Assembly: GCA_051313645.2 (NCBI GenBank)
Contig: JBNRSN020000028.1
Span: 65,038,001-65,102,000 of the forward strand
Reading direction: 5' to 3'
Length of the DNA stretch: 64,000 nucleotides
Source of the DNA: Centroscyllium fabricii
Taxonomy: Eukaryota
The notes under the pieces were generated by a model. That model saw only the letters and a program-made list of their open reading frames with translations, was not told where the DNA came from and did not search any database. Shown here in pieces: positions 5,081 to 37,539 of this stretch (positions within the stretch are counted from its first letter, which is position 1; every line of letters begins with the position of its first letter). A program made the translations under genes and the position numbers.

Positions 5081-5837
5081 ATGAAGTCAGCCATGGTAGT
5101 CCTGATCGTCATGATTGAAGCCAGTATGAGTCACAGGGATGACACCGAGGAATCGGTTGTCTTCGGCTGCACTGGCGGAGATGGACCGACCGTGACCACT
5201 GGAGGTGGCATGAAGGATGGAGCGAGCATCTTTCTCCATGAGGGAAGATGGCCTGGATGGCTGGGGTTGAATTCCACCCGTTATTCCAGCCATGACAAGT
5301 TCACCTATGGTGAAGTGTCCATCTCATGCCCGAGAATAGGGGTTACCACCTCCAGGGTGAGGGTAACAGAGGGTAAATGGGTGTGTCTTAGCTGTGGGGG
5401 ACACATTCCACTGGAAAGGTGGTGGTGGCTCAGGAAACTGAGCATGGAAACAAGGGACCAGACAGCTGACTGGGAAAGACTATGTAATGACATGTACCGG
5501 ATGATCACGGGTTCTCAGGGAGGAATGAATGTGTGTTGGGATAAGTGTTGGGAATCCGAGGAAGGGATTTATGTGTGTATGTGAGGGTCGGAAAAGATCT
5601 GCCCAGCGGGTGTGTCGATCGCGTTTAACAGGCGATGGCAGGACGCCGGGGGTGGGATCGGTTGGGATTGGATTGTGGACTCCTGTGTGATCCCAACACC
5701 CCTGAACATCATCAACGCCACAGAGCTCATCTCATACACCAGGAAGCCCCAGCCAGAGCCCCGACGGTACAGACGACTATAGATGGGTGTCCCACCACCA
5801 CCAGTGGTCCAGGGAATTGGTTGGTGTTAATCCCTAC
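5081..5837 (+). pseudogene. env: ERV-A env segment 1: signal peptide, N-terminal region, putative Ig-like domain
   Basis: Starts MKSAMVVLIVMI, preceded by splice acceptor ttttcag at about 5063. Contains VRVTEGKWVCLSC...WWW...EEGIYVC. Ends LVLIP and continues as TDKVLF after the Gypsy insertion. Confidence 0.8.
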
Positions 5838-6409
5838 TGTAAGGGTTCGGTTTTGAACCCAATTGCAGAACACCGGAGACAGTCTATAGTAAATAGGTGC
5901 TTTATTCCTAATTATCACAACAGTGGATATAGATATCAAAACACATAGAGCATAATACACATAGCACAACAAAGAAAACAATAGTCCAATATACCGAGAG
6001 CCGGTAAGCCAGAGTTCAAATATCCAAACCCGAATTCTTGGTGGTTGAAAAAGCAAGGCCCAAAAGTCTGGTGCAGCAGTACTCCCAATAATCCACAGTC
6101 CAGGAAAGGACACTCCTTGTTCAGTGTAACAGGTAATCCAACACGACAGGAACCAGGAATCCAAAACGATTGGAATCGAATACAAATATATAATACCAGA
6201 AATAACAGGATACAGGAAATACAGAACTCTTCAATAAGCGACATAGAAATAACACTCCGACAAAGTCATAGGGCTAACAGGTGGTTTATATTTAGCTCCA
6301 GTAACCAGTATGCTAGAATTAGACCAATCAGATGTGACACATGACAATAGGTAATAATCCAATAATGAACTGCAGCCTAGAGGTTTAAAGTGACAGTCCA
6401 CCCATGACA
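5838..6409 (-). repeat. 3' LTR of sushi-like Gypsy
   Basis: TG...CA termini. Direct repeat of 10935-11506. Purine tract (minus-strand aagggggggg) adjacent at about 6413-6422. Confidence 0.95.
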
Positions 6410-6487
6410 GAACCCCCCCCTTAAGGGACGCCACCTGACGTCCCCAAAACCCAAACCGCCGAAAACCGGGTTGGCGGGGAGGAGGAA

Positions 6488-9400
6488 CTAACAATTCTCG
6501 GGTCTCTCGTCAATGTCCATCTCCTCATCTGATTGAACAGAATCCTCCTGCACCATCATTTCAGGGCCCTCGTCATCCGATGCCACCCTATCGTCCAGGT
6601 CCTCCTGACTCAAAATGGGGTCGAAAACCTGTCCAGATCTCCTAGGAATCGCCTTCCCCTTTCTCGGTTGACCAGGGTGTTGTTTGCGAAAGTCGGAAAT
6701 GAGCTTGGGATCCATGATATTCCGAGCAGGGACCCAGGACCTCTCCTCAGGACCATACCCCTCCCAGTCCACTAGGTACTGAAGTCCCTTCCCTCGGCGA
6801 CGGGAGTCAAGCAAACGACGGACCGTGTACACTAATCCACCGTCGAGCATACGAGGAGGTGGAGGGGGTGCGGAAACGGGTACTAAGGCACTCTCCTGAG
6901 CAGGCTTGATGCGCGACACGTGAAAAGTCGGGTGGACCCGCATGGAACTGGGGAGCTTGAGTCGTACCGCAGCAGGGTTAATGATCCTTTCTACCACGAA
7001 CGGTCCGATAAACCTTGGAGCAAGTTTCTTGGACTCCACTTGTAGAGGCAGATCCTTTGTGGAGAGCCAAACCTTCTGCCCGACCCGATACTCCGGAGCA
7101 GTAGAACGACGACGGTTGGCCGAAGCCGAGTATCGATCCGCCGAGCGAAGCAGCGACATCCGCGCCTGATCCCATGTCCTGTGGCATCGTTGGATGAAGT
7201 CTTGGACGGACGGACAAGATACCTCCTTCTCCAGATCCGGAAACAATGGAGGCTGGAACCCATAAGCGCACTGAAAGGGCGAAAGTCCTGTAGCGGAACT
7301 GGTCAGCGTGTTGTGCGCATACTCCACCCATAATAGTAATGTGGACCAGGAAGAGGGATTTTTGGAGACCATGCACCGAAGTGCCTTCTCCATCTCCTGA
7401 TTCATCCTCTCCGATTGTCCATTGGACTGAGGATGGAATCCCGACGACAGACTGACCTTGGCCCCGATGAGACTGCAGAATTCTCTCCAAAATATAGAAG
7501 TAAATTGGGGACCTCGATCAGAAACCACATCCACCGGAAGCCCATGAAGCCGAAACACGTGCTGCAACATGAGCTCTGCAGTTTCTTTAGCAGAGGGCAG
7601 CTTAGTTAAGGGTATAAAATGTGCCATCTTGCTAAACCTGTCAACCATCGTTAGCACCGTGGTCAGTCCCTTGGATGAGGGTAGTCCTGTGACAAAGTCC
7701 AGGGCTATGTGAGACCAAGGCCGATGGGGTATAGGTAATGGTTGTAGCAGGCCAGCAGGTGCCCGACGAGAAGACTTGTGCTGGTTACAAATCGGACAGG
7801 CATTGACGAACCTCCGAGTATCCTCCTCTAGCGTGTCCCACCAGAACCTCCGCAAAATCACCTCCTTGGTCCTGAGTGCCCCAGGATGGCAGGACAGCTT
7901 GGACGCATGAGCCCACTGAAGGACATCCGATCGAATGTTCTTCGGCACAAACAAACGGTCGGGAGGACAACCGCTGGGCCCGCCCTGCTCCCCCGCAGCT
8001 GCTCTTACCCTCTCTTCGATCTCCCATGTGACCGCAGCAATACGGCAGGAGGCTGGCAAAATGAGGTCTGGTCCTGGAGCGGAACCCTCCTCCCTCAGAA
8101 ATAGGCGTGATAGAGCATCGGGCTTGACGTTGCGGGAGCCAGGCCTGTAGGAGAGAGTGAAGTGGAATCGCGTAAAAAAAAGAGACCACCTAGCCTGACG
8201 TGAATTTAGTCTTTTGGCCGTACGTATATACTCCAAATTCTTTTGATCCGTCCAAACAAGAAATGGCAGCTTGGTCCCCTCCAGCCAGTGGCGCCACTCC
8301 TCTAAGGCCATCTTGACCGCCAGCAATTCTCTGTCTCCGATATCGTAATTCATCTCTGCCGGTGAAAGACGCTTGGAGAAGAAGGCACATGGATGGATCT
8401 TCTGGTCTGAAGCTGACCTTTGCGACAAGATGGCTCCAACTCCCACATCCGATGCATCCACCTCTACGACAAACTGCTGATCCGGATCAGGCACCTGCAG
8501 AATGGGAGCCGAAGTAAAACGGGACCTCAGTTCCTTAAACGCCTCTTCAGCAGCGATAGACCATCTGAATGGCACCTTAGATGATGTAAGCGCCGATAAT
8601 GGTGCCGCTACCGTGCTATAGCCCCGAATAAATCTCCGGTAAAAGTTAGCGAAACCCAAGAACCGTTGTAATTGCTTGCGATTCTCCGGACTAGGCCAAG
8701 ACGTAACGGCTGTCACTTTCTCCGGGTCCATTCGCACGCTCCCCTGCGCAATGATATAACCCAGGAATGAAACGGTGGTTACATGAAATTCACATTTCTC
8801 GGCTTTCACAAATAAGGAGTTTTCTAGGAGCCTTTGTAAAACCGTCTGTACGTGATGGACATGCTCCTCCTGAGTCTTGGAAAATATTAGAATATCGTCC
8901 ATGTACACAAATACAAAAATATTCAGCATGTCCCGAAGAACGTCGTTGACCAGGGCTTGAAATACCGCCGGGGCGTTGGTTAACCCGAACGGCATAACGA
9001 GATATTCGTAATGGCCAGACGGAGTGTTGAAAGCGGTCTTCCACTCATCGCCCTCCCTTATCCGGACCAGATGGTACGCGTTGCGCAGATCCAACTTAGA
9101 AAAGATGGTAGCTCCCTGAATTAACTCAAATGCTGATGAGATAAGAGGCAGAGGATACCGATTCTTGATAGTGATTTCATTAAGTCCTCTATAATCGATA
9201 CAAGGCCGGAGCGAACCATCCTTCTTACCTACGAAGAAGAATCCTGCCCCTGCTGGTGAAGAGGAAGAACGGATGATCCCAGCAGATATTGAGTCCTCGA
9301 TATAGGCCTCCATGGCCTTCCTCTCAGGTGCCGATAGTGAATACAGGCGCCCCCTAGGTGGAGAGGAGCCTGGTAACAACTCAATAGCACAATCGTATGG

Positions 9401-10030
9401 GCGATGTGGAGGTAGCGAAGTGGCTCTAACCTTACTAAATACCTCCCTGAAATCATGATACTCGGTGGGAACCGCAGAGAGATCAGAACTGGGAAGAGGT
9501 GTGACCGACTGACGGCCTCCAGTGGCTTGTTTTAAACAGACTTGGTGACAGGAGTGACTCCAACCCAAAATGGCTCCCGTGTTCCAGTCAATGTGGGGAT
9601 TGTGACGACGAAGCCACGCGTGTCCCAAAATAAGAGGAAGCTGGGGCGAATCCAGGATATGGAACCGAATGCTTTCGTGATGATTCCCTGAAAATAATAA
9701 GTGAATGGGCGACGTCTGATGAGTCACCGTTCCCAGAAGGTGGCCATCAAGAGCGTTGGCAGCAACCGGTTGCGGCAGTGGACACCGGTCGATCCCCAAC
9801 TGTGTAACCAGCTCCTTATCAATAATATTAACATCCGCCCCAGAGTCGATGAATATGGCAAACGTCCGAGATCCTGACGGCAGAAGAAGTCGGGCCTGGC
9901 ACAAAGGCCGTGAATTTGAAGAGAGTCTAATCGGAGTTCGGCTCACCAGTACGACTCCCTCTACTGGTGAGTCTGGTCTTTTACCGGACACCTTACGACA
10001 AAATGGCCGGCCTGACCACAGTATAGGCAT
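6488..10030 (-). CDS. pol: Pol polyprotein PR-RT-RH-IN-chromodomain, probably expressed by frameshift from gag
   Basis: Motifs [32 protein letters not shown] core, GPF, and chromodomain [15 protein letters not shown]. Uninterrupted 1180-aa ORF. Confidence 0.95.
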
Positions 10031-10917
10031 AAACCCTTCCTGCGGCGCCGACTCCGCTCTAATGGCGAGATGCCTGTGCGGCCCAACTGCATGGGTTCGG
10101 GAACCCCTGACGTGGCCGAATCTCTGGGCGCCACGAATCTCTCCTGAACCCGTTTACCAGGATGATGACCCGTTTCTCCCAGTCCTCTCTCACGCTGCCG
10201 TGCTTGGATCCTTAGATCGATCCTCGTAACCAGGCTGATGATCTCATCCAAGGTGGAAGGGAGATTATGTGATACCAACTCATCCTTGATGTACCCAGCC
10301 AATCCATGAAGGAAAACCTCACATTGGGCAGCCATGTTCCAATTGCTCCGACGAGCCTTAATCCGAAAGTCAATGGCATAATCTACCACAGTCTGATTTC
10401 CCTGGTTCATACTCATGAGGCCCTCAGCCGTTTCCACCTCAAAGGCTACCCTGCCAAAAACCCTTCTTAACTCCTCAGAAAATGCTCTGAATGAACTGCA
10501 TGCCGGAGTATCTCTCTCCCACTCGGCAGTACCCCAGAGTCTAGCTCTCCCCGAGAGATGGTTGATCGCAAACGCTACTCTTGCCCTCTCGCTGGCAAAG
10601 GTGCGTGGTTGTAAGGAAAACAAAATAGAGCAGTTCGTAATGAATGGGTCGCACTGTTCTGGTTCACCAGCATAACGCTCTGGTACCCCAACTCGGGGCT
10701 CGGGTGTGAAGCTCAGTAGTAGAGGCATGGAAACTGATTCGGCTGTTGAATCTGGTTCCGGTGTGGAAGAAGTCCCTGCTGGGTTCGATACTGCGAACGC
10801 CCTCATGTCGGAGGTTAGCCGTTCTACTTTAGAGAACATATCCCCAAAGGCCCGACCCTGATGCGTTAGGACCTCCTCCATGCGTGCCAGACGTCCCGGT
10901 GTGTCCGCTGGGTTCAT
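9961..10917 (-). CDS. gag: Gag (PEG10/sushi-like capsid with CCHC zinc knuckle)
   Basis: Likely start MNPAD. Motifs [27 protein letters not shown] and [14 protein letters not shown]. Confidence 0.9.
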
Positions 10918-10934
10918 GATAGGTCGGAGTGTTC

Positions 10935-11506
10935 TGTAAGGGTTCGGTTTTGAACCCAATTGCAGAACACCGGAGACAGTCTATAGTAAATAGGTGCTTT
11001 ATTCCTAATTATCACAACAGTGGATATAGATATCAAAACACATAGAGCATAATACACATAGCACAACAAAGAAAACAATAGTCCAATATACCGAGAGCCG
11101 GTAAGCCAGAGTTCAAATATCCAAACCCGAATTCTTGGTGGTTGAAAAAGCAAGGCCCAAAAGTCTGGTGCAGCAGTACTCCCAATAATCCACAGTCCAG
11201 GAAAGGAAACTCCTTGTTCAGTGTAACAGGTAATCCAACACGACAGGAACCAGGAATCCAAAACGATTGGAATCGAATACAAATATATAATACCAGAAAT
11301 AACAGGATACAGGAAATACAGAACTCTTCAATAAGCGACATAGAAATAACACTCCGACAAAGTCATAGGGCTAACAGGTGGTTTATATTTAGCTCCAGTA
11401 ACCAGTATGCTAGAATTAGACCAATCAGATGTGACACATGACAATAGGTAATAATCCAATAATGAACTGCAGCCTAGAGGTTTAAAGTGACAGTCCACCC
11501 ATGACA
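10935..11506 (-). repeat. 5' LTR of sushi-like Gypsy
   Basis: Direct repeat of 5838-6409. Minus-strand TATAAA at about 11385. Confidence 0.95.
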
Positions 11507-11512
11507 CCCTAC

Positions 11513-11909
11513 TGACAAAGTGTTGTTTCAGAACGTGGACTATGCCGTGGCATCCGTGATCCTGAACCTGACTGAAGTCCATCTGCCTGTGTGGTATCCA
11601 AGGAAGATGGAGAAGCTTTATGAAACTCTGTTAAAAGTGATGTTTCAGGAATTTTATGAACTGGACTATGGAAATGTAGAGAAAGGACAGCTTTATAATC
11701 TTAATGTTGGGGTAGTGTGGGGTCCGGGAGGCAGAGAAGAGAGACCTGGAATGATGTAGCCACAGCGTTTAGTACAGGAACGGGTATTGTTAATAGTATG
11801 GATGATGCACAACTCCAGATGCAGATCACTGGGTTAAAGAACCAACTGCATATGATTCTAGGGGAAGAGAATACAATGGTGGGTTCAGAGTTTCATGAGG
11901 ACCAGCAAT
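11513..11909 (+). pseudogene. env: ERV-A env segment 2: F2-like region, furin site RQRR, fusion peptide/heptad repeat
   Basis: DKVLFQNVDYAVASVILNLTEVHLP...RQRRETWNDVATAFSTGTGIVNSMDDAQLQMQITGLKNQL, homologous to ERV-B env. Confidence 0.8.
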
Positions 11910-13389
11910 TGTAGGACTCTCAAAATTCCCACATTTCCCAAGTTATTATTAAGGGACCTAAAGGACAAGTTATCAATAAAGTGACCCCTGAAGGGAATGG
12001 CTTTTGGACATCATGGCAATACCTGCAAGGTTAAAGTAGGGCCCTGCAGACATGATGTCAAGTTCAAAAGCTTAAAACTTGGCATGCCTGGGCCTGTAGG
12101 ACACAGCTTTAGAAACCAGACAACTGGATGAGACAGAATAAACATTCTTCCCTTTTAACAAATCAACTCAGGAAAAGACTTAATCTTGCACAAACCTAAA
12201 GCCCATCAAAACTATGCAGAAATAATTGCTTACAGTTCAAACTAGCTACCAAGCCAGGATGATACCAAATAACATTATGCATAACAAACACCCAAGACAT
12301 TAAAGCCATTTAGCAATGAGATAACTGCCCCAAAACCAGTTAAGGTGAATGGCTATAATCACCTTAATGAGTTTGCCAAAAATCAGACAAAGAATTAACC
12401 CTGATTTGGTGCGCAGATAACAAACTCAAAAACAGTATAACTGTAGGCCCCCTCATAACCAAGGAAGCATTTTCGAGTGGAAGCATTCGGGAAGCATGCT
12501 AGCTAGCGACACGACACCAGAAGGAACCGAGTGAAGCCAACAGGAAGGCTCACGCAACATCACGGTGAGAGGGCACGGTGGGGCAGGCTCGACCGAAGAC
12601 AACAAGTTCACAACTGCAGCTCTACATGAGGACTGACCACAAGCACCACGGTAACAAAGGGCCAGAAAAACGATACCTTCAGATCATTACCACTACACAG
12701 GTAATGATCTCGGCCACCACGACCATGCTGAAACCGAAGACCACCAACCGAAAACCAACTGCAACAAAACTCAACAACCAGACCACCACCGGAAGAACAA
12801 AACCTGAAGTTTTCCACTCTACAAGCTAAAGTACCCAACAAAGACTTTATTCTCCCTATTTCTAACTGAGAAAAGTGGGTACTCACCAGACAAATCCACA
12901 ACTGTGCCCAACCGCATCAGCGGACTCCACCAAACTGAAAAACCTTCGCAGATTCTAAGACTAGTAACACTTGGAGATGGCAGGCCCCAAAAACGCAACT
13001 GGCTTAACTGACAGGATTCGAACTGTCAAGTTGGTGAGCATGATCCCTGGCCCTTTTAGTACAATTTAGTTAGATATTGGGGGTGGGACAGGGTCGGGGC
13101 ATTATTAATGTGATTGTTTTCCCTCATTGTGCTGTGTGTTCCCCATTCCTGATTAAGTGTACTCTCGAATGTCTGTAACTATTACAGTAATCTAGGTGTA
13201 ATTTTTCAATGTTATAATTTTATTGTGACTCTAATAAAACACAGTTTTCTTGCACCAAACCAGTTGTCTGCTCCAATTTTGTATCACAGCCTGCACCCAA
13301 GTCCAGAGTCTAGAGCCTAAGGGGTGTGGGAGCGATTCAAACCGCTCAGACAGTCAGAGGCAAAGCTGACCCACAGGCCACCCCCTACA
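11910..13389 (+). repeat. ERV-B 5' LTR (about 1.48 kb)
   Basis: Direct repeat of 34028-35505 with scattered substitutions and indels. AATAAA at about 13234. Confidence 0.95.
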
Positions 13390-13393
13390 GAAA

Positions 13394-13413
13394 TGGTGAC
13401 CGCGGCAGGACTC
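13394..13413 (+). promoter_or_regulatory. Primer-binding site, tRNA-Arg-like
   Basis: TGGTGACCGCGGCAGGACTC begins 4 nt after the LTR. It matches, from memory, the complement of a vertebrate tRNA-Arg 3' end (TGGCGACCGCGGCAGGACTC) with one CpG-type change. Confidence 0.8.
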
Positions 13414-13464
13414 TGGCAACAGGGGTGTGATACAGTAGGCACTGATTCGGAAGAGAACATTTTA

Positions 13465-15191
13465 ATGGAAGAAAGGATTTCAAATTATGTTTTCAGTAAA
13501 GTGAATATCACCAAGAAGTGGATCACTAATCTGTTAAAGGCTGAGCGTCCAGTAGATGCTGCGGCTAAGTGGACAGAAGGGAAGGATCACAAGAAATCCA
13601 TAGGGAAATCAGTCTGGCTGATGTGCTTCAAGAAACAGGTCCAGCTTTTGGGCAGGATCATTGAGGTACAGGCAGCTGAGATACGGGAGTCAGCCCTGGA
13701 AGCCCAAGCAAGGGCTCCAGCAGGGGAGAGGTTACTGGCAGGATTTAAGGCTCTGAACAAGGAAAGGGTGCAGTTACTGGGGGAGCATAAGACCAGGCAG
13801 GAGTATTTACAGTGTCAGGTGAGTTTGTGGAAAACGAATGCCCGCCTAGCAAGACAAGTAAGAGAGCAGGAGGAGAATGTAAAAGACATATAGGCAGCCT
13901 ATAAGATAGCGAGCGCACAGGGGTTTGAGGATGCAGATCATGGCCCTTGCCAGAAACAGATAGAGAATCTTAGCCTTGCTCTAAGGAAGGCAAAATACAT
14001 GGTGTGCCTCATAAGCCTGAGTGCAGCCCAGGTCGACTTTACAGGGAAACTGGGGAGAATGGTTCAGACACCATTGGCAGTGCCAAGGGATGACCTGGTT
14101 GAAAAACAGGAGGACACACGACCACCACCCGTAGCGCCAAGTTTCAGCAAAGTCTGGCAGCAAGTGGGGTGGAGTTAGGGGTAGATGCTGAGGTGGAAAA
14201 ACCCCCGCAAGAGAGGCTGGGACCGGGGCCGATGTGCCCGGCCCGGCAGCAAAGGTTTGGCCCACCCGCTGATAACGGGGATGAGGGACCCCTTCAAAAC
14301 CATTTTGTAGTTCCCCACGGCACCCAACAGCTTAGGGCTATGGTAACCTATATAACAAAACTCACAGCAAATGGGGACCCCTCGGTCCACTTCAGGGAAG
14401 TGGAACAGGCAGCAAGCATCAACGAGTGCGATGATGCTGAACAGGCCAAAATGCTGCTATTCTCCCTGGCGAGTAAGCTCTTCCAGCCCCTCTCTGACCA
14501 GTGTCAGAGGGGACAGAGCAAGTGTGGGGAACTCAGGGAGGAAGTTTTTGAGGCCATGGGGATGAATGAAGGAAGTCCTTTCTCCCGGGTGGAGGAAACA
14601 GTGCAGCTCACAGGGGAAACCCTGCAGGTTTTCGCAGACAGGTTGTGGCCGGTGTATAGGAGTGCCTGTAATGGGGCACCTAACCGGGCTAACCTGGACC
14701 AGGATCAGCTGGCCCACTGGCTCCATTGCCTGGGGGCAAACAGCTTGCCATAGGTCAGGGCCAAGGCAGAAATGTGGTTTGACCCAAAGCATCCCCTGAC
14801 TACAGAACAGATAGCGGTCAGACAATTGACCCTAGCTTCCTGGAATGGTAAGGGAACCGATGAACACTCGCCTAAAGGGAAGGTGCATGAAATGAAACCT
14901 GGCCAGGGTTGGAAGGGGTAGCATCAGGAAGGGAATAACCCTTCCAGCACAAAGCTTAACTGTTATGGGTGTGGGAAGGATGGACACTGGAGGAAGGAGT
15001 GTAGAAATCCTTGGAACGATAACAAGGGAAAGGATTCCTCAGCCCCAGCCCAAAAGACAGAGACAAGAATCCCTCCCACCACGGTCGAGTCATTTTTGGA
15101 CCACATAAGGACCCTATTGACTGGCCCAGGGAAGGTAGCAGCCATTACCGGTGCTCTGACCCCATCGGCCCCATCTAACCCACCGACCTGA
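13465..15191 (+). pseudogene. gag: ERV-B gag: N-terminal coiled coil, capsid, CCHC zinc knuckle
   Basis: Starts MEERISNY with a long heptad-rich region. Capsid-like GDPSVHFREVE and QLTGETLQVFADRL. CYGCGKDGHWRKEC at 14961. Internal stops and frameshifts. Confidence 0.85.
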
Positions 15192-16334
15192 CTAGAGTCA
15201 GCGCAGCCTGTTTACCTGTGTTCCCTTAAGTACGACTTATGGAAGAGACCTCTCGTTGAGATGGAGGTAGAAGAGGTAAAAGAGACCTGTCTGTTGGACA
15301 CGGGAGCATCATGCACCATGATCCATTCAGCTAACCCCACCACCTCACCTCTATGTAATGGGGTCCCATACAGCCTGTCGGGATTCACAGGTAAAGAACA
15401 GGCTGGCTCATTTTCCATCCCGCTGTCCATTCATTTAGGAACACTCTGCTCTAAGTGGACCTGTATCCTAATGAAGTGGGAAGTGGAGGGTGGGAAAGGG
15501 ATCCTGGATCCAACTTTATTGTAGGCCACAGGATCCTAGTGGATTTAAGAAATCACTGCCTATGGGGGGTGACTACAGGAAAGGAAGGCAGAGTAGTAGC
15601 CATGCCAGGGAAACAGGGGAAGGGGACCCTGTGCACCATGAAGCCTAAAGAGGGTTATAATCTCAAACTCATGGTCAGTAATACCCGAAGGGAGTTCCAG
15701 GCATTTGTGCAAGCCCACCTAGCCACATTTGCCACACACAAGCACGACTGTGTGAGTGTCAATGGGTTCAAGGTCAGTGTGGATGGGAACCCTATGGCCC
15801 GACCACAAAAGCAGTATAACTTCCCCAGGGAAGCGGAGCCAGCCATGGAAGCAGCCATGTCCTCCTTAGTGTAACAGGGAGTCCTGAGACCGATAGCCAC
15901 CCACGTAAACTCTCCATTGTGGCTGGTTAGAAAACCGAACAACTCCTAGAGGGCCACAGTGGACTGTCGGGTGCTCAACAGTAACATCCCAGCCTGTGCA
16001 CCCATGGTAGCAGCAGTTGCCGACCTGATAGGAAGTAACCCAGCATCCGCAACCACTTTCACAGTGCTGGATATTTCCAACAGGTTTTGGTCCATCCCTT
16101 TATGGAGTGAGGGTTAGCACAAGGTTGCCTTTACTTTTAAAGGGCAACAGTACACCTGGAACTGTTTGCCTCAGGTCTTCCACAATAGCCCTAGCATTTT
16201 CCACCAATGTATGGCAAACAGGTTAAATGGCTTCAGCCAGCCCAGGCAGCTGGTACAGTAGGTGGATGACCTGCTACTCTTCATGGATTCGAGAGAGGAG
16301 CATGGCTCACTACTAACCGAACTGCTGGAACTGC
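15192..16334 (+). pseudogene. pol: ERV-B pol segment 1: protease and RT
   Basis: Motifs LLDTGAS, NSPLWLVRKP, VLDISNRFWSIPL, LPQVFHNSPSIFHQ and LVQ*VDDLLL (YVDD with a stop). Confidence 0.9.
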
Positions 16335-18054: not shown

Positions 18055-18076
18055 GCCGCACACCCTATCAAATTCC

Positions 18077-27110: not shown

Positions 27111-27119
27111 GGGACAATC

Positions 27120-27568
27120 CCCCACTTATCTGAGACTTAGACGAGGTGGGACCTTTGGGCAGAGGCCCTCAGCCTGCAGCAGAGGTGGGATGTGTGGGCA
27201 AGGACCCCCAGCCTGCAGCATCAGGCTACGTAGAGGTTCCTGTCCCTAGCACACGTTTAGGAGTGGTAATGCTTGAGGATAAAAATCCCCAGCCAGCAGT
27301 AGTGCAAAGTTTACAGACTGCACAGGAGGGGGCAGTGGTTCGTGTTAAACCCCCACCAACCAAAGTCCCTAGAAGGTCCCCACGAACGCCACGGCCAAAG
27401 AAACCATGGTCACTGGCTCCCCAGCTTAAAAGGGCAGCCTCTCAAGTCAGGAATCAATCTGAGGACAGAGGTCCCCAGCCAGCAGCCACAAGCTGCAAGG
27501 GACCAAAAGTACAGGACAGGGCAGCCTCACCGAAGGGAGTTGTGTGCTGCAACCCGAACGGGGATTAG
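27120..27568 (+). other. ERV-B post-integrase repetitive extension (xxxPQPAA repeats)
   Basis: Repeats GRGPQPAA, GKDPQPAA, EDKNPQPAV and EDRGPQPAA. A similar unit (EDRSPQSAA) lies before the CR1 insertion at about 23865. Confidence 0.6.
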
Positions 27569-27809
27569 CCTGGCCACTCGGAGACGGGCAGCAAATGCAC
27601 ATAGCTTCTGTTATTTAATTTTGGGATCGTTAAGTTTGGGTGTTTTAGTTTAATTTTAAACAAGGTGATTGGTAGTTTAAGTATTATTGTTTCAAGAGTG
27701 TTTGTATTGAGTCGAGGTCGCAAGACCCGACTATGCTTTACCCCAGCCAGCGAATCTTCTCGGGACCTGGCTATATGCTCTTACGTCTCCTTACAGAAGG
27801 GATTCCAAA

Positions 27810-28731
27810 ATGAAGGGGGACATGCTCCTATTTGCCCTGATAGGAAGGAACACTGGGAGGTGAGGAGACGTGGAGGACTCCCACATTTATGGGTGCTCAG
27901 GAGAAAGAGCATCGGTTATGACTGCTGGGGGAGGCGAACGAGGCATGGAGGAGCTCGCTATCTATTCCCATGAGGGAAGATGGCCAGGATGGCTGGGATC
28001 TAACTCCACCCGGTACTCCAGCCAGACCGGGTTCACCTACGGGGAAGTCTCCCTCCCCTACCCCAGCATACGGATTGTGGCCACACGGATTGGGGTCACT
28101 GAGGGGAATTGCGTGTGCCTGACCTGCAGAGGACAGATTCCCCTGGGAAGGATGTGGTGGCTCAGGAAACTGAACAGAGACACGGAGGACCGTACAGCTG
28201 ATTGGGAATGACTGGGGAACGACACCTACTGGACGATCACAGGGACCCAAGGGGGAGTTAGTGTATGCTGGGATAAGTGGTGGGAGTCAGAACAGGGAAT
28301 TTATGTCTGCATGTGGGGTCTCAGAGGGTCTGCCCCACGGGCATATCCATCATATTTTCCGCAGCATGGCAGGATAAGGGGAAGGGGGTGGAATGGGATT
28401 CCCACCTATACACTTGCATAGTCCCACACTCACCAGCCCCAGTTAAAATCACTGTGGCATGCGCCCAAAAACCCCTGACCACGACCCAGACAGCAAGGAC
28501 ATACATAGAGAGGTGCCCTGCCACCACCAAGGGACTAGGATGGACTGGTGCTAGTGCCGACCGAAAAGGTGCTATACCGGGGGTACACTATGCGGTAGCT
28601 TCCGTGATTCTAAAAAACCTTACAGAGGTACACTTACCTGAGTGGTGCCCCAAGGAGACAGAACAGCTATACCAGGCCCTGTTAAGAGAAATGTTTAGGA
28701 AATGCTACGAGACAAAACAGAACTGTACATT
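27810..28731 (+). pseudogene. env: ERV-B env segment 1: signal peptide, putative Ig-like domain, start of F2-like region
   Basis: Starts MKGDMLLFALIG after acceptor ctccttacag. Contains HEGRWPGWLG, GVTEGNCVCLTC...WW...EQGIYVC and VHYAVASVILKNLTEVHLP. Collinear with ERV-A env. Confidence 0.8.
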
Positions 28732-31700
28732 GGTGCCTCCCTGGTGCCAGGGTCCGGGATGTCACGGATCGGCTGCAGGACATCTTGAGGGGGGAGGGGA
28801 ACCAGGTAGAAGTTGTGGTCCACATTGGCACCAACGACATAGGAAAAAAAGGGGACGAGGTCCTGCAAAGAGAATTTAGGGAGCTGGGTAAAAAGCTAAA
28901 AAGCAGGACCCCAAAGGTTGTAATCTCTGGATTACTCCCAGTGCCACGAGCTAGTGAGTATAGGAACCGTAAGATAGAGCAGCTTAATTCGTGGCTAAAA
29001 AGTTGGTGTAGGAAGGAGGGTTTCAGCTTTTTGGACAATTGGTCTTGCTTCTGGGGTAAGTGGAACCTGTACATGCCGGACGGGTTGCACCTGAACCGGA
29101 ATGGGACCAATATCCTTGCGGGAAGGTTTGATAGTCGGGTTGGGGTGGGTTTAAACTAAATTGGCAGGGGGAGGGGACCCAGAGTGAAGGCATAAAGGGT
29201 AGGGGAATACAACCTAATAAAGGAAAGCAGACTAGACAGCAAAACAAGGTAGTATTAGGTCAGAGAATGAAAGGTATATATTTTAACGCAAGGAGTCTGA
29301 CTAACAAGGTGGATGAGTTAAAGGTATTGGTTGACACATGGGAATATGATATAGTAGCTATCACGGAGACGTGGCTGAAGGAGGGGCAGGAATGGCAGCT
29401 AAATATTCCGGGGTATAGAATTTTCAGGCGGGACAGAGACGAGGGAAAAAGGGGAGGGGGGTAGCGATACTGATTAAGGATTCAATCACAGCCATCAGGC
29501 GGGTCGACCTAATGGATGATTCCTCAAACGAGGCACTATGGGTGGAGGTAAAAAATAAAAAGGGGGGTGCACCTTACTGGGAGTATATTATAGACCACCA
29601 AACAGTAAAGGGGAGATGGAGGGTAAGATATGTGAGCAAATCACGAAGATAAGCGAAAATAACAAAGTAATAATATTAGGGGACTTTAATTTCCCCAACA
29701 TCAACTGGGATTGTCAGAGTGTGAGGGGCACGGAAGGTTCAGCATTCTTAAAATGCAGCCAAGAGAGTTTTTTGAAGCAATATGTTGGGTCACCTACAAG
29801 GGGGGGGGCGGTACTAGACCTAATACTTGGGAACGAAGACGGGCAGATAGAGGAGGTAACAGTGGGGGAGCACTTCGGGGATAGCGACCACAATTCAGTT
29901 AGTTTCAAGATTGTAATAGAGAAGGATAAAAATGGACCAGGGGTAAAAGTACTAAACTGGGGGAAGGCGGATTTCATTAAAATTAGGCGCGATGTAGCCG
30001 CAGTAGACTGGGGCCATCTTCTCAGAGGAAGATCTGCATCAGAGCAGTGGGAGGCCTTCAAAGGGAAGGTCGGGAAGATACAGGAGGAACATGTTCCTGC
30101 AAAAATCAAGGGCGGGGGAGGTAAACAAAGGGAACCTTGGATGTCTAGGGATATATGTAAATTAATGAAGAAAAAAAGGGGGGCCTTCAATGAATATAAA
30201 CGGCTAAAAACTGAGGAGGCGCTAGGGGAGTATAAGAAGTATAGGGGGGAATTAAAGAAGGAGATAAGAAAAGCCAAGAGGGGTCATGAGATTGCAATGG
30301 CCGGCAAAATCAAGGATAAACCTAAGGCATTTTACAGTTATATAAAAAACAAAAGGATCACGAGGGAAAGAGTGGGGCCCATTAAGGACGATAGCGGAAA
30401 GCTGTGCGTCGAGCCCGAGGCGGTGGGGGAGGTACTAAACGAATTTTTCTCTTCAGTATTCACAAGAGAGAGGGACGGAACCAACATCGTAATCGGACAG
30501 AGTGTAGGGGGGGTAATTGAGGATATTACCATTACAAGGGAAGAAGTACTAGAAATCTTGGGAAGCTTAAAGGTAGACAAATCACCAGGGCTGGACGCGA
30601 TGTTCCCCAGGCTGCTGTTCGAGGCCAGGGAAGAGCTTGCGGGCCCCCTGTCTCAAATTTTCAGGTCCTCTCTCGCGTCAGGGGAGGTACCCGAGGACTG
30701 GAGAACGGCTAATGTAGTACCCCTGTTTAAAAAGGGTAGTAGGGACAAACCGGGTAACTATAGGCCAATCAGTCTTACATCTGTAGTGGGGAAAGTAATG
30801 GAAAAAATTCTGAGGGACAAAATCAGTCTGCATTTGGAAAGGCAGGGTCTGATAAGAGATAGTCAACATGGCTTCGTCAAAGGTAAGTCGTGCCTAACTA
30901 ATCTCTTGGAATTCTTCGAAGAGGTAACAAAAAGGGTGGATGAAGGGAGTACGGTCGACGTGGTGTATATGGACTTCAGCAAGGCTTTTGATAAAGTCCC
31001 ACATAGGAGACTGATAACAAAGGTAAAAGCACATGGGATACAGGGCAACGTGGCACAGTGGATTCAAAATTGGCTGGGGGACAGGAGACAAAGGGTAATG
31101 GTAGAGGGCTGCTTCTGTGACTGGAAACCAGTAACCAGCGGTGTCCCCCAAGGATCGGTTTTGGGACCCTTACTGTTTCTAGTATACATTAATGATTTGG
31201 ACACAGGAGTAGGGGGTACGATCAGCAAATTTGCTGATGATACGAAAATTGGAAGGGTGGTAAATAACGATGAAGATAGTAAAAGGCTCCAGGAAGATAT
31301 AAATGTAATGGTTAGTTGGGCAGAAAAATGGCAAATGGAGTTCAACCCAGAGAAATGCGAGGTCATACAATTCGGCAGACCAAATGGGGTAAGGGAATAT
31401 ACCATGAACAAAAAAACGTTAGGTAGGACCGAGGAACAGAGGGACCTGGGGGTACAGGTGCACAGCTCCCTGAAGGTTGCTGGACACGTAAACAAGGTGG
31501 TTAAGAAGGCATACGGAATTCTGGCCTTTATTAACCAGGGCATAGTGTACAAAAGTAGGGAGGTAATGTTAAACTTGTATAACACGCTGGTGAGACCTCA
31601 GCTGGAGTACTGTGTGCAGTTCTGGTCACCGCACTTCAGGAAGGATGTGGTTGCCCTGGAGAGGGTGCAGAGAAGGTTTACCAGGATGATACCTGGTCTG

Positions 31701-32162
31701 GGGGACTTATGCTACGAGGAAAGGCTGGACAGGCTGGGGTTGTTTGCCTTGGAGAAGAGAAGATTGAGGGGTGACATGATCGAGGTATACAGGATCATGA
31801 GAGGACACGATAAGGTGGATAAAGGGGCATTGTTTCCCTTGGTGGGAGAGTCAAGTACCAGGGGACATAGATTCAAGATTAGGGGGGGGAGGTTTAGGGG
31901 GGAGGTAAGGAGAAATTTCTTTACTCAGAGGGTGGTGGAAGTGTGGAACTCCCTGCCTGTAAGGGTGGTGGAGGCAGAAACCATCGCAACATTTAAAAAA
32001 TATTTGGACCAGCACATGAAGGACCGTAACATACAGGGTTATGGGCCAGATGCGGGCAAATGGGGTTAGTATAGTGAGGAGTTTCCTGGGCCAGTGCGGA
32101 CTGGATGGGCCGAATGGCCTTTATCCGCACTGTAAAGTTTCTATGATTCTATGATTCTATGA
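28732..32162 (+). mobile_element. CR1 LINE: ORF1 esterase part plus ORF2
   Basis: ORF1 SGNH motifs VHIGTND and DGLHLN. ORF2 EN motifs YFNARS, ITETW and GDFN, RT motif FADD. (ATTCTATG)n tail. Confidence 0.95.
29267..32069 (+). pseudogene. CR1 ORF2 (APE endonuclease-RT), frameshifted in EN, with an 817-aa open RT portion
   Basis: ORFs 29267-29464 and 29616-32069. Confidence 0.9.
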
Positions 32163-32690
32163 TTGCACACACTGAATACTTCAGCAATGCAGGGAGACAA
32201 AGAAGGGCAACCTGGAATGATGTTTTCACTGCATATAATACAGGATCTTTTGTTATAAACAGCCTAGTTGACATAGAATTGCAGACACAGATAAATGGTT
32301 TAAAAACACAATTACGAAAAATCTTAATGGAGGAAAATACAGTAGTAGGCTCACATGAGGACCAAGCTATGATGGTCCATTTAAAAGAGATTATTGCTGA
32401 GCTGGAGAGGCATGCAAAGGCAGCAAATGCACTCATTTGGGAAGACAGGAATGCTTCAGACCAGGCTGCACAGAACGAGGTGTGCGTACTCTACGGGGCA
32501 TGGTTGCTAGGCGAGGGCCAGAGTAACCTGGAGGATTTAAAGCAAGGTTTAGTCCCCTCCTGGATCAGCAACAAGCACCTTGCAGCCCTCTACCCATTTG
32601 AGAATTCATTAAGCCCATGTCAGCTCCACCTAGCCTCTAAGGCTTACCCTGTCCCAGTAGATTGTGGGCGCTCCAATCACACTGTCATGG
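32163..32690 (+). pseudogene. env: ERV-B env segment 2: furin site and F1-like N-terminus
   Basis: GRQRRATWNDVFTAYNTGSFVINSLVDIELQTQINGLKTQL...NEVCVLYGAWLLGEG...VPSWISNKHL. Confidence 0.85.
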
Positions 32691-33237
32691 CCTCCAACAT
32701 GCTGAAGGTCTAACTTTCTCCCTAGGGTGCCCAAGATTAGTGGCCACAAAACTTACCTTCCAGCTGCTTCCAGTGCTTCACAGATTACGCGCTACATAGC
32801 TGTCAAGAGCCTGCCAATGAAGCAATGCACCTGTCAATCATTGAGTTTCTGTTAGTTTCTGTTGACAGTGGATTCTGACATCAGAATTCACTGAAACCAC
32901 AAACAAACAGAACAGACTAGTTAGAGCTGTCAATTATCGAGTTGCGGTTACAATCTGTTGACAGTGGATTATGATGTCACAATGCCCTGAAGCCACAGAA
33001 AGAAAAACACCAGACCACTTAGAGCTGCCAATCATCAGCTCTGCTGCTTACACAGTGGGAAGGCCGCTGGCTTCCTAAGTAAAATCAATCAATTGGCAGG
33101 GGCTTCCCACACTTGGAGATTTAATTGGCCAATTGAGCCAAAATTGTGTGGGGCTTCCACACCCTTTACAAAGTGGAAAGATAAAGTGATCAGCAGGGAA
33201 CCCACCCATTTCTCACATCCTGAGGAAAATTGACCCC
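32691..33237. mobile_element. Right-hand remnant of a Harbinger-type MITE with internal repeats; left end and adjacent env deleted
   Basis: Ends ggaaaattgacccc followed by ATT. Internal agagctgtcaat...tctgttgacagtggatt repeats. Confidence 0.6.
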
Positions 33238-33720
33238 ATTGTGTCACCACAAGTGCGCCCCACTGCCAGCTTGGCCAGCCTAACTGGTGTCTGGTAAGTG
33301 ACAGCAGTTCAAGTGGCCCAGGAATGGAGAGTCACAATTCCTGAACTGTAACAGAAAAGTTTACCAACCTGCAAAAATATGTAGCACATTTCGGCCATGA
33401 AATATCTCCTCTACTGGAACATCTTACCAAGTTACTCAAAGCTGTAGAGATATCACAAAAGCATTTCTGCACTTTAGAACAGAAAACAAGATAGAGGGAG
33501 AGATTCAATATATCACAGTCCTACCCTGATAGGACATTTTTGAAAACATAGATGTCCCTTCATGGGTTAGAATGGCTTCCAAAATCCTCGTGGTTTGCCA
33601 GCTGGGAATATTATTGTACCTGTTGTGCATTCAGTACAAGAGAAAAGGCAAAGCACTAGAATGCCAAAACAAAAGGATTTGGAAGAAACATTATGTTAAG
33701 GTGGAGAGATATACCTGTTT
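33238..33720 (+). pseudogene. env: ERV-B env segment 3: C-terminal ectodomain, transmembrane helix, basic tail
   Basis: CVTT..., EHLTKLLKAVEISQKHF and VPSWVRMASKILVVCQLGILLYLLCIQYKRK. Confidence 0.75.
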
Positions 33721-34027
33721 AAATCTTTTTATTTTCGTGTTTCTGAATAAGGATTGTTGTTTTTTTACTAAAGACTTTGATGTGTTTTTTGTAATAAAGA
33801 TATATGTGTACCAAGTGGTGCAGGGGTTTTGGAACCCCCTCCATGCTTGGATGTGTGTAAATAACTTTTTTGCTTATGTACGCTGCATTTTTAAAGAATG
33901 GGGAATGTATGTGTCATGGGATTTTAGACAGGTAATTACAGGGAACATTGGCTATGGAGGGTCAGGAATTGTGCTCACCTTTGAAAGTATGCTATTTGAA
34001 GCGAGTTTCAGTATCACAGTGGGGTAA

Positions 34028-35505
34028 TGTAGGATTCTCAAAATTCCCACATTTCCCAAGTTATTGATAAAGGGAACCCTGAAGGGAATGGCTTTTGGAC
34101 TTTATGGAATACCTGCAAGGTTAAAGTAGGGCCCTGCAGACATGATGTCAAGTTCAAAAGCTTAAAACTTGGCATCCCTGGGCCTGTAGGACGCAGCTTT
34201 AGAAACTAGGATGAAATGGAATATGCATTCTTCCCTTTTAACAAATCAACTGAGGAAAATACTTAATCTTGCACAAACCTAAAGCCCATCAAAACTATGC
34301 ATAAATAATCGCTTACAGTTCGAACTAGCTACCAAGCCAGGAAGACACCAATTAACATTATGCATAACAAGCACCCAAGACATTAAAGCCATTTAGCAAT
34401 GAGACAACTGCCCCAAAACCAATTAAGGTGAATGGCTATAATCACCTTAACGAGTTCGCCAAAAATCGGACAAAGAACTAACCCTGATTTGGTGCACAGA
34501 TAAAGAACTCAAAAACCCATAACCAAGGAAGTATTTTCAAGATAAAGCAATTGGGAAGCATGCTAGCTATTGACACGACACCAGAAGGAACCGAGTGAAG
34601 CCAACAGGAAGGCTCACGCAACATTACGGTGAGAGGGCACGGTGGGGCAGGCTCGACCGAAGACAACAAGTTCACAACTGCAGCTCTACATGAGGACTGA
34701 CCACAAGCACCACGCTAACAAAGGGCCGTAAAAACAATACCTTCAGATCATTACCACTACACAGGTAATGATCTCGGCCACCACGACCATGCTGAAACCG
34801 AAGACCACCAAACGAAAACCAACTGCAACAAAACTCAACAACCAGACCACCACCGGAAGAACAAAACCTAAAGTGTTCCACTCTACAAGCTAAAGTACCC
34901 AACAAAGACTTTATTCTCCCTATTTCTAATTGAGAAAAGTGGGTACTCACCAGGCAAATCCACAACCGCACCCAACTGCATCAGCGGACTCCGCCGAACT
35001 GAAGAACCTTTGCAGATTCTAAGACTAGTACCACGTGGAGACAGCAGGCCCCAAAGGACACAAAGAGTGAACCCCCAAAACTCAACCGGCTTAACTGATA
35101 TGATTTGAACTGTCAAGAAACCCTTGTTGGTGAGCATGATCCCTGGCCCTTTTAGTACAATTTAGTTAGATATTGGGGGTGGGACAGGGTAGAACATAAT
35201 AAGAACATAAGAAATAGGGGCATTATTAATGTAATTTTTTTCCCTCGTTGTACCGTGTATTCCCCATTCCTCATTAAGTGTACTCTTGAATGTCTGTAAC
35301 TATTGAGTAATCTAAGTGTAATTTTTCAATGTTACAATTTTATTGTGACTCTAATAAAACACAGTTGTCTTGCACCGAATCAGTTGTCCACTCCAATTTT
35401 GTATTGCAGCCTATACCTAAGTCCAGAGTCTAGAACCTAAGGGGTGTGGGAGCAATTCGAACTGCTTAGACAGAGGCAAAGCTGACCCACAGGCCACCCC
35501 CTACA
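34028..35505 (+). repeat. ERV-B 3' LTR
   Basis: Direct repeat of 11910-13389. Confidence 0.95.
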
Positions 35506-35509
35506 CAAT

Positions 35510-37539
35510 GACTGTTCATTTAAAGGAATTCATTGCAGAGCTGGAAAGGCATGCAAAAACTGTTAATGATTTGATACGGGAGGACAGGAACGCCTCGGAG
35601 CAGGCTGCACGGAATGAGGTGTGTGTGTTGTATGAGCATGGTTGCTGGGCGAGGGCCGCAGTAACCTGGAGGACCTGAGGCAAGGTCGCGTCCCTTCATG
35701 GTTAAGCAATAAGCATCTTGCTGTGCTGCACCCGTATAGCAATTTGTTGAGCCCATGCCAGCTTCATTTAGCCTCTGAAGCCTACCCTGTCCCTATAGAT
35801 TGCAGGTGGTCCAACCATACAGTGATGGGAATTGTAGTGAGGATGCCGGTAATGGGCGGGTCATCCTGGCTGGCGCCGTTATACAGGGTTGAGAATATCG
35901 GGGTCATTCGTGGAGGAGTGCATGTTCGTTTTAAAGTGGTCCCGCTGTTTGTCATAAAGTGGGAGCATTCTATGACAGGCACTGACCTCTCCAGATGCCA
36001 GAGCTGGGGTGCACAAATAATACTATGTCCCCAGCACCTGAATGCTTTTGCACGACCAGAATGTGGGTTTGCTTCTGCAGGTGCGGAACCTATCAATTGC
36101 ACCATGGAAGTGATGGCACCACATCATGTACCTCCACAGGTAGCATACGTAGGGAGTGGGACATATTGGGCCAGAAATTCCAGTCTGCCGGTTTGTGCGG
36201 GTGCAAGGATCATGCGGACACCTTTAGCACCGCACCAGAATCGCACATTTTTTATGGCCATAACTTCCTGTTGGCTCCGCCCCGTTCCAGGGCTGTGTGG
36301 CAGTCCAGCCACGCTAGTAGTGCTGTATATCCGCTGCCGTCGTGCGTGCGTAGCAGTGATGCCCCGCCCACAGATCCCTAATTTAAATAAAAAACGCCCC
36401 CTGCTTCACAGTCGGACTTCTTAGAGAGCAGGGACGTGAGGCCGTTATTAGGACCACGCCCACTGCTGCACCCACAGACTCGGCAGTGAGCACCGCGGCC
36501 AGAGCAGCTTTTCAATGGGGGTAAGTCTTAGCGATTTTTTCTCTTAGTTTTTTAAATTAAGGAAATAGTTAAAAATTTCAGAACTTTAAATTTAAAAATA
36601 AGTGATTTGGAATAGGTATAACAATTGAAATTCGGATTTTTAATTTTTTTAAAAAACTTTAACAGCCAAATTTAATGATAGCGATCTGGCCACATTACTC
36701 CAAAAAATTGATAAAACTTAAAATTAAAGGTAAAAAAGTCAATTACCTTGTTTAGGAATGCACTGCTCTCACCAACGCACAGGTTACGACTCCTTTTTTC
36801 CCGTGCAGCTCCAAGCCCATTTGCCCACAGATGAACGCACAGAATCACACCCAAAAACATCAGGATTTTTGGGTGCAATTCTTTTGTGCATTCCATGCTG
36901 AGGCCTCTTCTCCCTCAGCATCAGAAAGCTTCGATCCATGGGCATGCCCCGTGCGATCATTGCACGGGGCATATTGGCACCCTCCGTGCGGGTGCAAGTG
37001 GTACTAGGCACCCGAATTTCTGGCCCATTGTGTCACCACAATGAACTCTGCCACTGGTACAGCCAGGACATGTGGTGTCCGGTGAGTGAGAACAGTTTTT
37101 GCTTCAAACCCAAGGCTGAGGTTCAAGTGGCACAAGAGCGAATTACTCCCATCCCCGAACTCTCAACCATTCACCTTACTGTGAACAACACCTTCACGTG
37201 TCTCCAGGACTATGTGTAACATTTCAGATACCAGATTCCTTTCTGCCAGAACACCTCACTGAGTTAATAAAGACCATTGAGCTCTCCCAGAAACATTTTT
37301 ACACTTTTGTGCAAAAGACAGTAGTAGTGGGGGAGGAGATCAAGGGGATTGTCTCACCACCATGGTGGGATATCGGTCTGAGTATAGAGATTCCTCCCTG
37401 GATCCGCACCTGTTCCCATGCATTAGTTATCATACAATTGTTGCTTGTCAACTACTTGTTTTACACCAGCTGCAGGCAACGGAGCCAAATGCTCCGAGCG
37501 CGGTGGCAAGGGGTGTTAGATCGATCCGGAAAGGTGTAA
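35510..37539 (+). pseudogene. env: ERV-A env segments 3-4 (F1-like cysteine-rich ectodomain and TM), split by the MITE at 36168-37026
   Basis: VPSWLSNKHL, VMGIVVRMP, LYRVENIG, DLSRC...ILCP...ECG...NCT, GTY|CVTT and TM CSHALVIIQLLLVNYLFY. Confidence 0.85.
36168..37026. mobile_element. PIF/Harbinger-type MITE
   Basis: TIRs gggccagaaattc / gaatttctggccc. ATT TSD at 36165-36167 and 37027-37029. Confidence 0.9.

Follow-up and report, generated by a model that had tools for sequence, protein, structure and literature searches.

An Immunoglobulin-Like Head on an Envelope Protein with Indirect Links to F-Type Fusogens in Nested Endogenous Retroviruses of Centroscyllium fabricii

Two Nested Proviruses with Disrupted Envelope Genes

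The stretch analyzed here, 64,000 nucleotides of the Centroscyllium fabricii genome (contig JBNRSN020000028.1, positions 65,038,001 to 65,102,000 of the forward strand; hereafter the window), holds two endogenous retroviruses (ERVs), ERV-A and ERV-B, whose envelope (env) genes each carry an immunoglobulin (Ig)-like domain in front of a putative F-type fusion part. The whole ERV-B provirus is nested within the env of ERV-A, which spans 5081..37539 and is split by a Ty3/Gypsy element, by ERV-B, and by an inverted-repeat insertion. A first-pass annotation, made from the sequence alone, had treated the two as independent proviruses; they are separate insertions, but of one family, with reverse transcriptase (RT)/tether regions 73-80% identical to a young copy of that family and Ig regions 64% identical to each other. 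ERV-A and ERV-B are therefore not independent evidence of domain capture.

In ERV-A, all parts of which lie on the forward strand, a pol remnant with the end of RT, the tether, the second RNase H, and the integrase (2509..4733) precedes a 5' env piece (5081..5837) that encodes a signal peptide, an N-terminal arm, the Ig-like (V/I-set) domain (5330..5608, end approximate; cysteines at 5393 and 5576), post-Ig strands, a Thr/Pro linker, and the start of an F2-like part with the CP motif at 5788. An in-frame stop (5582) and, downstream of it, a frameshift disrupt this piece. The Gypsy long terminal repeat (LTR) retrotransposon follows on the reverse strand (5838..11506; LTRs identical at 574 of 576 positions, target site duplication (TSD) CCCTAC), and then a frameshifted second env piece (11507..11909) with the F2-like part, RQRR (11729-11740), and the start of the fusion peptide and heptad repeat A (HRA). 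Beyond ERV-B lie a third piece (35506..36167) with the central helix and the Cys-rich ectodomain, an insertion with terminal inverted repeats (36168..37026) that resembles a miniature inverted-repeat transposable element or DNA transposon and is assigned to neither strand, and a 3' piece (37027..37539) with an HRB-like helix, a transmembrane segment (TM; 37417-37464), and a cytoplasmic tail.

ERV-B (11910..35505, forward strand, TSD CAAT) is bounded by LTRs at 11910-13389 and 34028-35505 that are 93% identical (1320/1416), has its primer binding site (PBS) at 13394-13411, and contains insertions of Gypsy, L2-like, and CR1-like elements. Its 5' env piece (27810..28711, forward), which runs from the signal peptide through the N-terminal arm, Ig-like domain, and linker to the F2 start, contains stops at 27861 and 28209 as well as frameshifts; the Ig-like domain occupies 28062..28330 on the same strand (end approximate), with cysteines at 28125 and 28308 and an in-frame stop inside. 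A forward-strand CR1-like long interspersed element with a microsatellite tail and no clear TSD (28712..32160, boundaries approximate) is followed by a piece with RQRR (32195-32206), the fusion peptide, and the heptad and central helices (32174..32689, forward), and by a 3' piece (33345..33703, forward) with the TM at 33581-33628. In the numbering of the intact copies described below, residues ~304-319 (at the CR1-like insertion) and ~494-656 have no counterpart in ERV-B, so that the Cys-rich ectodomain is kept in ERV-A only. Non-env DNA with an internal ~100-bp duplication (32690-33344) occupies its place in ERV-B.

Much of what the first-pass annotation had read from these env genes is borne out. 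The conserved HEGRWPGWLG segment is found at 5237-5266 in ERV-A and at 27969 in ERV-B, and the Ig-like pattern lies where it had been claimed, with a WWW run after the first cysteine, E-x-G-I-Y-V-C ending at 5578 and 28310, and 60 residues between the B-strand Cys and the final Cys in both proviruses. The claim that the genes become collinear once their insertions are removed also holds, as the pieces of both are ordered along a natural intact Env of 783 amino acids (aa). Removal by TSDs, however, works for the Gypsy element and ERV-B within ERV-A but not for the CR1-like element within ERV-B, and the genes are broken by stops and frameshifts as well as by insertions. The Thr-rich linker ascribed to ERV-B is not restricted to it, the Cys-rich ectodomain described for both is gone from ERV-B, and the hydrophobicity of the proposed fusion-peptide region after RQRR is only mild (Kyte-Doolittle mean of the best 19 residues, 0.77).

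Intact Copies Read Head and Fusion Part in One Frame

The 7.2-Gb genome contains thousands of candidate env relatives (9,166 and 10,781 first-look candidates), from which 20 of 150 head matches and 20 of 84 fusion-part matches were fetched, picked mostly for long open frames. At 12 of the 20 selected fusion-part loci, we found an unbroken natural Env of 780-783 aa. In the 783-aa form, a single frame runs through the signal peptide, arm (18-84), Ig-like core (85-175), post-Ig strands, Thr/Pro linker (216-236), F2-like part (from CP at 238), RQRR (327), F1, and TM (~735-757), and older copies are likewise uninterrupted from the head past RQRR. These copies rule out that the head is a separate open reading frame (ORF) and uphold the first-pass view that the Ig-like domain and the fusion part belong to one protein. 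The DNA identity among 11 intact copies is 93-99%, indicating the recent spread of a subfamily.

A skate (Rhinoraja) and a sawshark (Pristiophorus) have homologs with the same head, and Chiloscyllium and Scyliorhinus have related ones. The Ig region of two skate proteins (P0005 and P0007) is 76-79% identical to that of the young Centroscyllium family, nearer to it than ERV-A or ERV-B, which suggests either a related host or cross-species infection. Two Pristiophorus proteins (P0006 and P0009) consist of Env pieces joined to predicted host genes (Niban-like and zinc-finger); these fusions may be annotation artefacts or exonisation.

The Head Resembles an Immunoglobulin V/I-Set Domain

Judging from its sequence, the head core (aa ~85-175) very probably adopts an Ig fold. 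It combines the features of V/I-set domains of the Ig superfamily (IgSF), namely B- and F-strand cysteines 55-75 residues apart, a C-strand Trp, and D/E-x-G-x-Y-x-C, and the key positions are conserved among the aligned heads (C106 in 24/26, W116 in 25/26, G163 in 21/23, Y165 in 19/22, and C167 in 22/23); eight cysteines are conserved across the head. By chance, such a motif pattern arises in 3 of 20,000 shuffles of the whole intact Env and in none of 20,000 shuffles of the N-terminal extension.

Profile comparisons uphold the V/I-set assignment made in the first-pass annotation. The profile of 26 family heads finds the IgV domain of CRTAM as its top match in the PDB (E 0.04), and a viral-only profile that also includes two divergent viral families finds the IgV domain of mouse CD8-alpha (E 4.7e-4, 89 of 96 positions), with IgSF proteins making up 59 of the 60 matches listed (81 in total at E up to 10). 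The viral profile is aligned in register with IgV over its full length, including both cysteines, the C-strand Trp, and D/E-x-G-x-Y-x-C. In hhalign, the head matches a host I-set domain from the Centroscyllium genome with a probability of 63% and a score of 30.4, compared with at best 19.6 in 40 column shuffles, 13.2 for the reversed profile, and 10.2 for FN3; the match to a host V-set domain extends over 17 columns only. Similarly, the hidden Markov model (HMM) of the viral heads scores above 5 bits against 9 of 26 host V, 9 of 30 I-set, and 0 of 24 FN3 domains. Single sequences give a weak Pfam Ig_3 match at the same place in 8 of 17 spanning pieces, with E values of 7e-4 to 8e-3 in 3 of 10 trimmed pieces, and one homolog (P0015, Chiloscyllium) is labeled ‘Ig-like domain-containing’ in UniRef. 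A PDB search with the full Env as a single sequence returned no matches. In the ESM Atlas, the ten best family matches of a skate homolog fall in the Ig clan (0.88-0.89), a result that a third of shuffled proteins share and that serves as a lead only.

The Ig-Like Domain Is Under Purifying Selection

As the first-pass annotation had proposed, we computed the ratio of nonsynonymous to synonymous substitution rates (dN/dS) between ERV-A and ERV-B; over the Ig region (86 codons) dN is 0.23, dS is 1.25, and the ratio is 0.18, indicating purifying selection, with dS near saturation in this region and saturated in F1 and F2. Among the 11 young intact copies, the corresponding ratio of proportions (pN/pS), obtained by an approximate method from pairs that are not independent, is 0.10 in the Ig core, the lowest of five regions, followed by F1 (0.14), F2 (0.17), and the flanks (0.30 and 0.40). 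The Ig-core ratio of 0.8 between ERV-A and an old copy of its own subfamily reflects decay after insertion, as expected. The Ig-like domain is thus under purifying selection, and the low pN/pS indicates that the family depended on Env, the Ig core included, during its multiplication, in keeping with a putative spread by reinfection.

The Fusion Part Has Indirect Links to F Proteins

Apart from the head, the Env contains a signal peptide, a basic cleavage site, a coiled coil, and a TM, and its fusion part shows indirect but consistent links to F. Comparison by eye with lokiretrovirus Env reveals shared motifs, including GP-x-x-G-(I/L)-V-L at the F2 start, the basic cleavage site, ‘L-x-x-G-x-(I/V)-P’, and ‘Y-(R/K)-(L/V)...N-(V/I)-G’. 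The Env of snakehead retrovirus (SnRV) aligns with the family fusion part over 318 columns in hhalign (probability 94.8, E 5e-8; score 66 vs. 25 in the best of 10 shuffles), and the family Env HMM, run on the four ORFs of the SnRV record, recovers the env frame (E 2e-7). When a 28-row Env profile with distant relatives was searched against the PDB, the top of 28 matches were two entries named ‘Envelope glycoprotein gp130’, 8RM1 (E 0.0018) and 8RM0 (E 0.013), which we take to be simian foamy virus Env. Foamy virus Env shares the fold of paramyxovirus and pneumovirus F (Fernandez et al., PMC11468914), and published lokiretrovirus Envs are reported as PF00523-like (Wang and Han, PMC7947760).

A three-copy model of aa 238-570 reached a homotrimer score of 0.57, against 0.00 for the best control, with the central helix (418-441) packing against the F2 helix (283-303); its runs share at least 34% of contacts, with a pLDDT of 51 or more for the partner. 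In microbes, 21 of 30 solved pairs and 0 of 23 single chains reach the mark that it passes, and in animals 7 of 16 do, a calibration made on assemblies other than trimers; the model may also owe its pass to F trimers learned from solved structures.

Probable Affinity to Snakehead Retrovirus

The family pol encodes a protease, RT, tether, RNase H, and integrase (Pfam RT_RNaseH and RNase_H, H2C2, and rve). The LTR-gag-pol-env order with a tether and second RNase H is present, together with LTRs and a PBS, an arrangement common to all retroviruses. A scan of a viral collection with the RT gave one relative, a 10,688-nucleotide record whose RT matches the published SnRV row. For the RT comparison, 43 rows were collected, of which 30 were kept after removal of near-duplicates and one was dropped for a stop; references were labeled from size and motif, and the two lokiretrovirus-type RTs by their match to published rows. 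Among the 29 references, SnRV has the closest RT (45% identity over ~255 residues), followed by gammaretrovirus-sized (38-40%), foamy-sized (32-37%), lokiretrovirus-type (34%), and Gypsy (22-29%) sequences. In the RT tree, which has long branches and lacks ERV-L and epsilon references, a clade with the two lokiretrovirus-type RTs is rejected by the approximately unbiased (AU) test (p-AU 0.027), whereas a clade with SnRV is not (p-AU 0.54; constrained tree 0.4 log units better than the free one), which is no proof of such a clade. The best PDB match of the integrase is foamy virus integrase (E 3e-32). Membership among the spumaretroviruses was also considered and rejected, as the foamy-sized references form an RT clade (100/100) that excludes the family RT, the signal peptide is short, and there is no insert between F2 and RQRR. 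The ERV-B PBS, which presumably resembles the complement of the 3' end of tRNA-Arg, has no match in the SnRV record at up to three mismatches. In the young family, pol continues after the integrase into a long, acidic, low-complexity tail without a Pfam match (L127:4020-4715; L129); the SnRV pol is long too.

A lokiretrovirus label for the proviruses is not supported: the Env motifs, the similar tether, and the dual RNase H are shared with that group, but the RT, which has LPQGF rather than CPFGY, lies away from lokiretroviruses. The family has an Env that probably works like that of lokiretroviruses, but it is not a lokiretrovirus, and the virus is nearer to SnRV. SnRV resembles it not only in RT and in the homologous fusion part but also in a long N-terminal extension ahead of the same CP..GP motif. 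This extension, in contrast, is ~500 aa long and unalignable to the Centroscyllium head beyond a 14-column motif; in the SnRV Env (record frame 6131-9532), homology to lokiretrovirus, foamy virus, and F-type proteins begins at residue ~515. The first domain of SnRV Env resembles a small I-set Ig domain (perlecan Ig match, E 0.078), and the Ig-like piece of SnRV has no significant match in the Centroscyllium genome. SnRV-like ERVs are known in the elephant shark (CmiERV lineage I; PMC4422223), and SnRV requires its Env for spread (PMC12193657); the accessible parts of these two papers do not mention an Ig domain or F-type homology. Lokiretroviruses, by comparison, were reported in none of three chondrichthyan genomes (Wang and Han, PMC7947760).

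Proposed Role of the Head and Alternative Explanations

We favor, with some confidence, a joint interpretation in which ERV-A and ERV-B represent decayed copies from a large ERV family of cartilaginous fish that is related to SnRV and partly young, and in which the single env encodes a trimeric class Ib (F-type) fusogen carrying a ~220-aa head whose Ig V/I-set core serves as the attachment module. RQRR would be cleaved by furin, the head would be kept tied to F1 via the F2 part, with C282-C425 as a candidate bond, the Ig domain would bind a molecule on the cell surface, probably an adhesion protein of the IgSF, and attachment would release the HRA and fusion peptide. The Ig domain would then be the attachment module of a self-sufficient fusogen, with an exchangeable head replacing the separate attachment protein of paramyxoviruses. 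The head may have been acquired from a host IgSF gene long ago, and so ancient an uptake would explain why no donor can be named.

Several results weigh against this interpretation. Every Pfam Ig match lies below the curated cut-off, 9 of the 17 spanning pieces have no Ig match, the alignment (A4) was trimmed with the Ig idea in mind, and the viral-only profile search includes one non-Ig match (dynein light chain, E 0.005). AlphaFold2 gave no confident model of the head (26 rows; all-beta, mean predicted local distance difference test (pLDDT) 37) or of the full Env (51 rows; pLDDT 31), and neither Foldseek nor VIA-align found a significant match for the weak head model, in which post-Ig strands lengthen the sheet and the best Z scores are 5.9 (bacterial Ig-like folds) and 4.1 (obscurin Ig). 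The fusion part, called F-type in the first-pass annotation on the strength of its likeness to lokiretrovirus Env, agrees with that class by homology to lokiretrovirus, foamy-type, and SnRV Env and by the trimer model, but its Env pieces have no direct match to PF00523, a genome-wide scan gave one non-significant match, and there is no direct match to paramyxovirus F. Lokiretrovirus Envs and two database relatives (P0052 and P0054) are headless, so the head is dispensable for fusion in the wider family. Finally, strong conservation fits a structural role equally as well as receptor binding.

A genuine Ig domain might instead be structural, acting as a cap or clamp that stabilizes the prefusion trimer or shields its core while the receptor site lies elsewhere. 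Such a role would suit a pN/pS as low as that of F1, the eight conserved cysteines, which might fasten the Ig core within a bigger rigid head, and the extension of the sheet by the post-Ig strands in the weak model; we nevertheless regard it as unlikely, given that a 25-residue Thr/Pro linker parts the head from the core and that headless or unrelated-headed relatives fit an optional add-on. It also seems quite unlikely that the domain acts outside entry as an immune decoy or modulator, mimicking a CD8-, CD2-, or nectin-type host receptor on infected cells or virions: the best PDB matches are indeed V domains of immune IgSF proteins, CD8-alpha and CRTAM, but these matches are at the family level only, no close paralog was found among 56 host V/I domains or in a protein search, and the N-terminus of a fusogen is the usual site of an attachment domain. 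A virus-born beta-sandwich that resembles Ig by convergence, as the lack of a confident three-dimensional model, the unusual Trp-rich E-F segment, and the Pfam shortfalls could suggest, is improbable in view of the full-length IgV register, the negative FN3 and shuffle controls, and the UniRef name of the homolog.

With the attachment role as the favored reading, the Env can be set beside known systems. An N-terminal module is lacking in published lokiretrovirus Envs, in which the F2 motif directly follows the signal peptide in 22 of 22 sequences with an N-terminus (23 of 24 entries; the 23rd is a fragment and was excluded from the count; PMC7947760, accessible part), so the Ig head is not a standard feature of that group. 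Foamy virus Env, the best PDB match of the deep Env profile, resembles the modeled protein in forming a trimer through a central helix with an F2 contribution, but its receptor-binding domain (RBD) has a fold of its own and is inserted inside the N-subunit, whereas the module here is N-terminal, as in the coronavirus spike, and Ig-like. F has been viewed as a minimal scaffold that accepts receptor modules N-terminally (spike) or internally (foamy virus) (PMC11468914). IgV-like N-terminal RBDs (RBD-C) have been described on gammaretrovirus Env, and a captured, SIRP-derived RBD on an alpha-like Env (Hotzel, 10.1101/2024.03.17.585361). Those systems share with ours an Ig V-type domain at the Env N-terminus as the receptor-binding module, with host capture proposed or shown, but they involve class Ia orthoretroviral Env, and for the Centroscyllium head a close host donor is undetectable; the accessible part of that paper does not mention sharks, lokiretroviruses, or paramyxoviruses. 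The first-pass statement that the architecture was not known from described retroviruses was hence too wide, although it stands for F-type Env: in the openly accessible literature searched, we found no account of such a head on a retroviral Env of the F type and none that treats SnRV Env as F-like.

If the interpretation is correct, an F-type fusogen that carries its own Ig head for attachment would join two known ideas, Ig heads on Env and F as a scaffold for receptor modules. This analysis adds the placement near SnRV, the homology of the fusion part to foamy-type and SnRV Env, and the variety of heads across the family. An F-type Env in the SnRV-like lineage bears on the question of retroviral Env origin raised by Wang and Han, and since an exogenous relative has been cultured and natural copies that are intact are numerous, the structure of the head and its binding partner are directly testable.

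Variety and Origin of the Heads

Among the 52 matches of the database search for Env relatives, P0052 and P0054 have no head, P0013 and P0027 have a Cys-rich non-Ig head, P0038 has an I-set-like head (probability 73%) that found no Ig match in the PDB, and the frog proteins P0020 and P0047 have a weakly V-like head that is not significant. The Cys, Trp, and W-x-x-(F/W)-W..E-G-x-Y pattern recurs, at an identity of 21%, in a second family of the Centroscyllium genome. Pairwise profile tests between family heads were not significant except for P0020-P0047 and P0013-P0027. In a quick Env tree, Ig, non-Ig, and headless forms are intermixed, indicating more than one event of head gain, loss, or exchange, in a direction that the tree does not reveal. 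The first-pass proposal of a captured host receptor domain lacks a traceable donor: a search of the 56 host V/I domains together with a protein search found no close paralog, the best host V domain scoring 17.7 bits and having no close PDB relative itself.

One tentative scenario is that the class Ib Env is the ancestral retroviral envelope common to the three deep lineages of lokiretroviruses, SnRV-like viruses, and foamy viruses, and that the SnRV-like lineage repeatedly grafted various host IgSF domains to its N-terminus, where they would serve as interchangeable heads for receptor binding. As parts of this same doubtful proposal, the V-like heads of elasmobranchs, the CD2/I-set-like head of P0038, and the perlecan-like domain of SnRV would represent separate grafts, in a parallel to the coronavirus spike that would here involve host-derived modules.

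Some of these relatives deserve mention in their own right. The cluster of P0047, from the frog Mantella, has sixteen members, most of 677 aa, which suggests that an amphibian family with a distinct head is young and active. The second Centroscyllium family includes an env frame of 851 aa that is unbroken and encodes a divergent Ig-like head (L171:1459-4011, reverse strand), with a Gypsy element between env and integrase, while other copies of the family carry stops; co-option of this env is possible. P0015 (Chiloscyllium) and P0071 (Scyliorhinus) are long, apparently intact Envs from sharks of different orders; they are 86% identical without gaps, and the Centroscyllium copies closest to them are broken, making the pair a candidate for a domesticated env gene or for cross-species spread.

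Minor Features of the Window

The polypurine tract of ERV-A lies at 37924, and the Gypsy element nested in ERV-B carries at least eight tandem 45-bp repeats in its gag-pol region (17538-18034).

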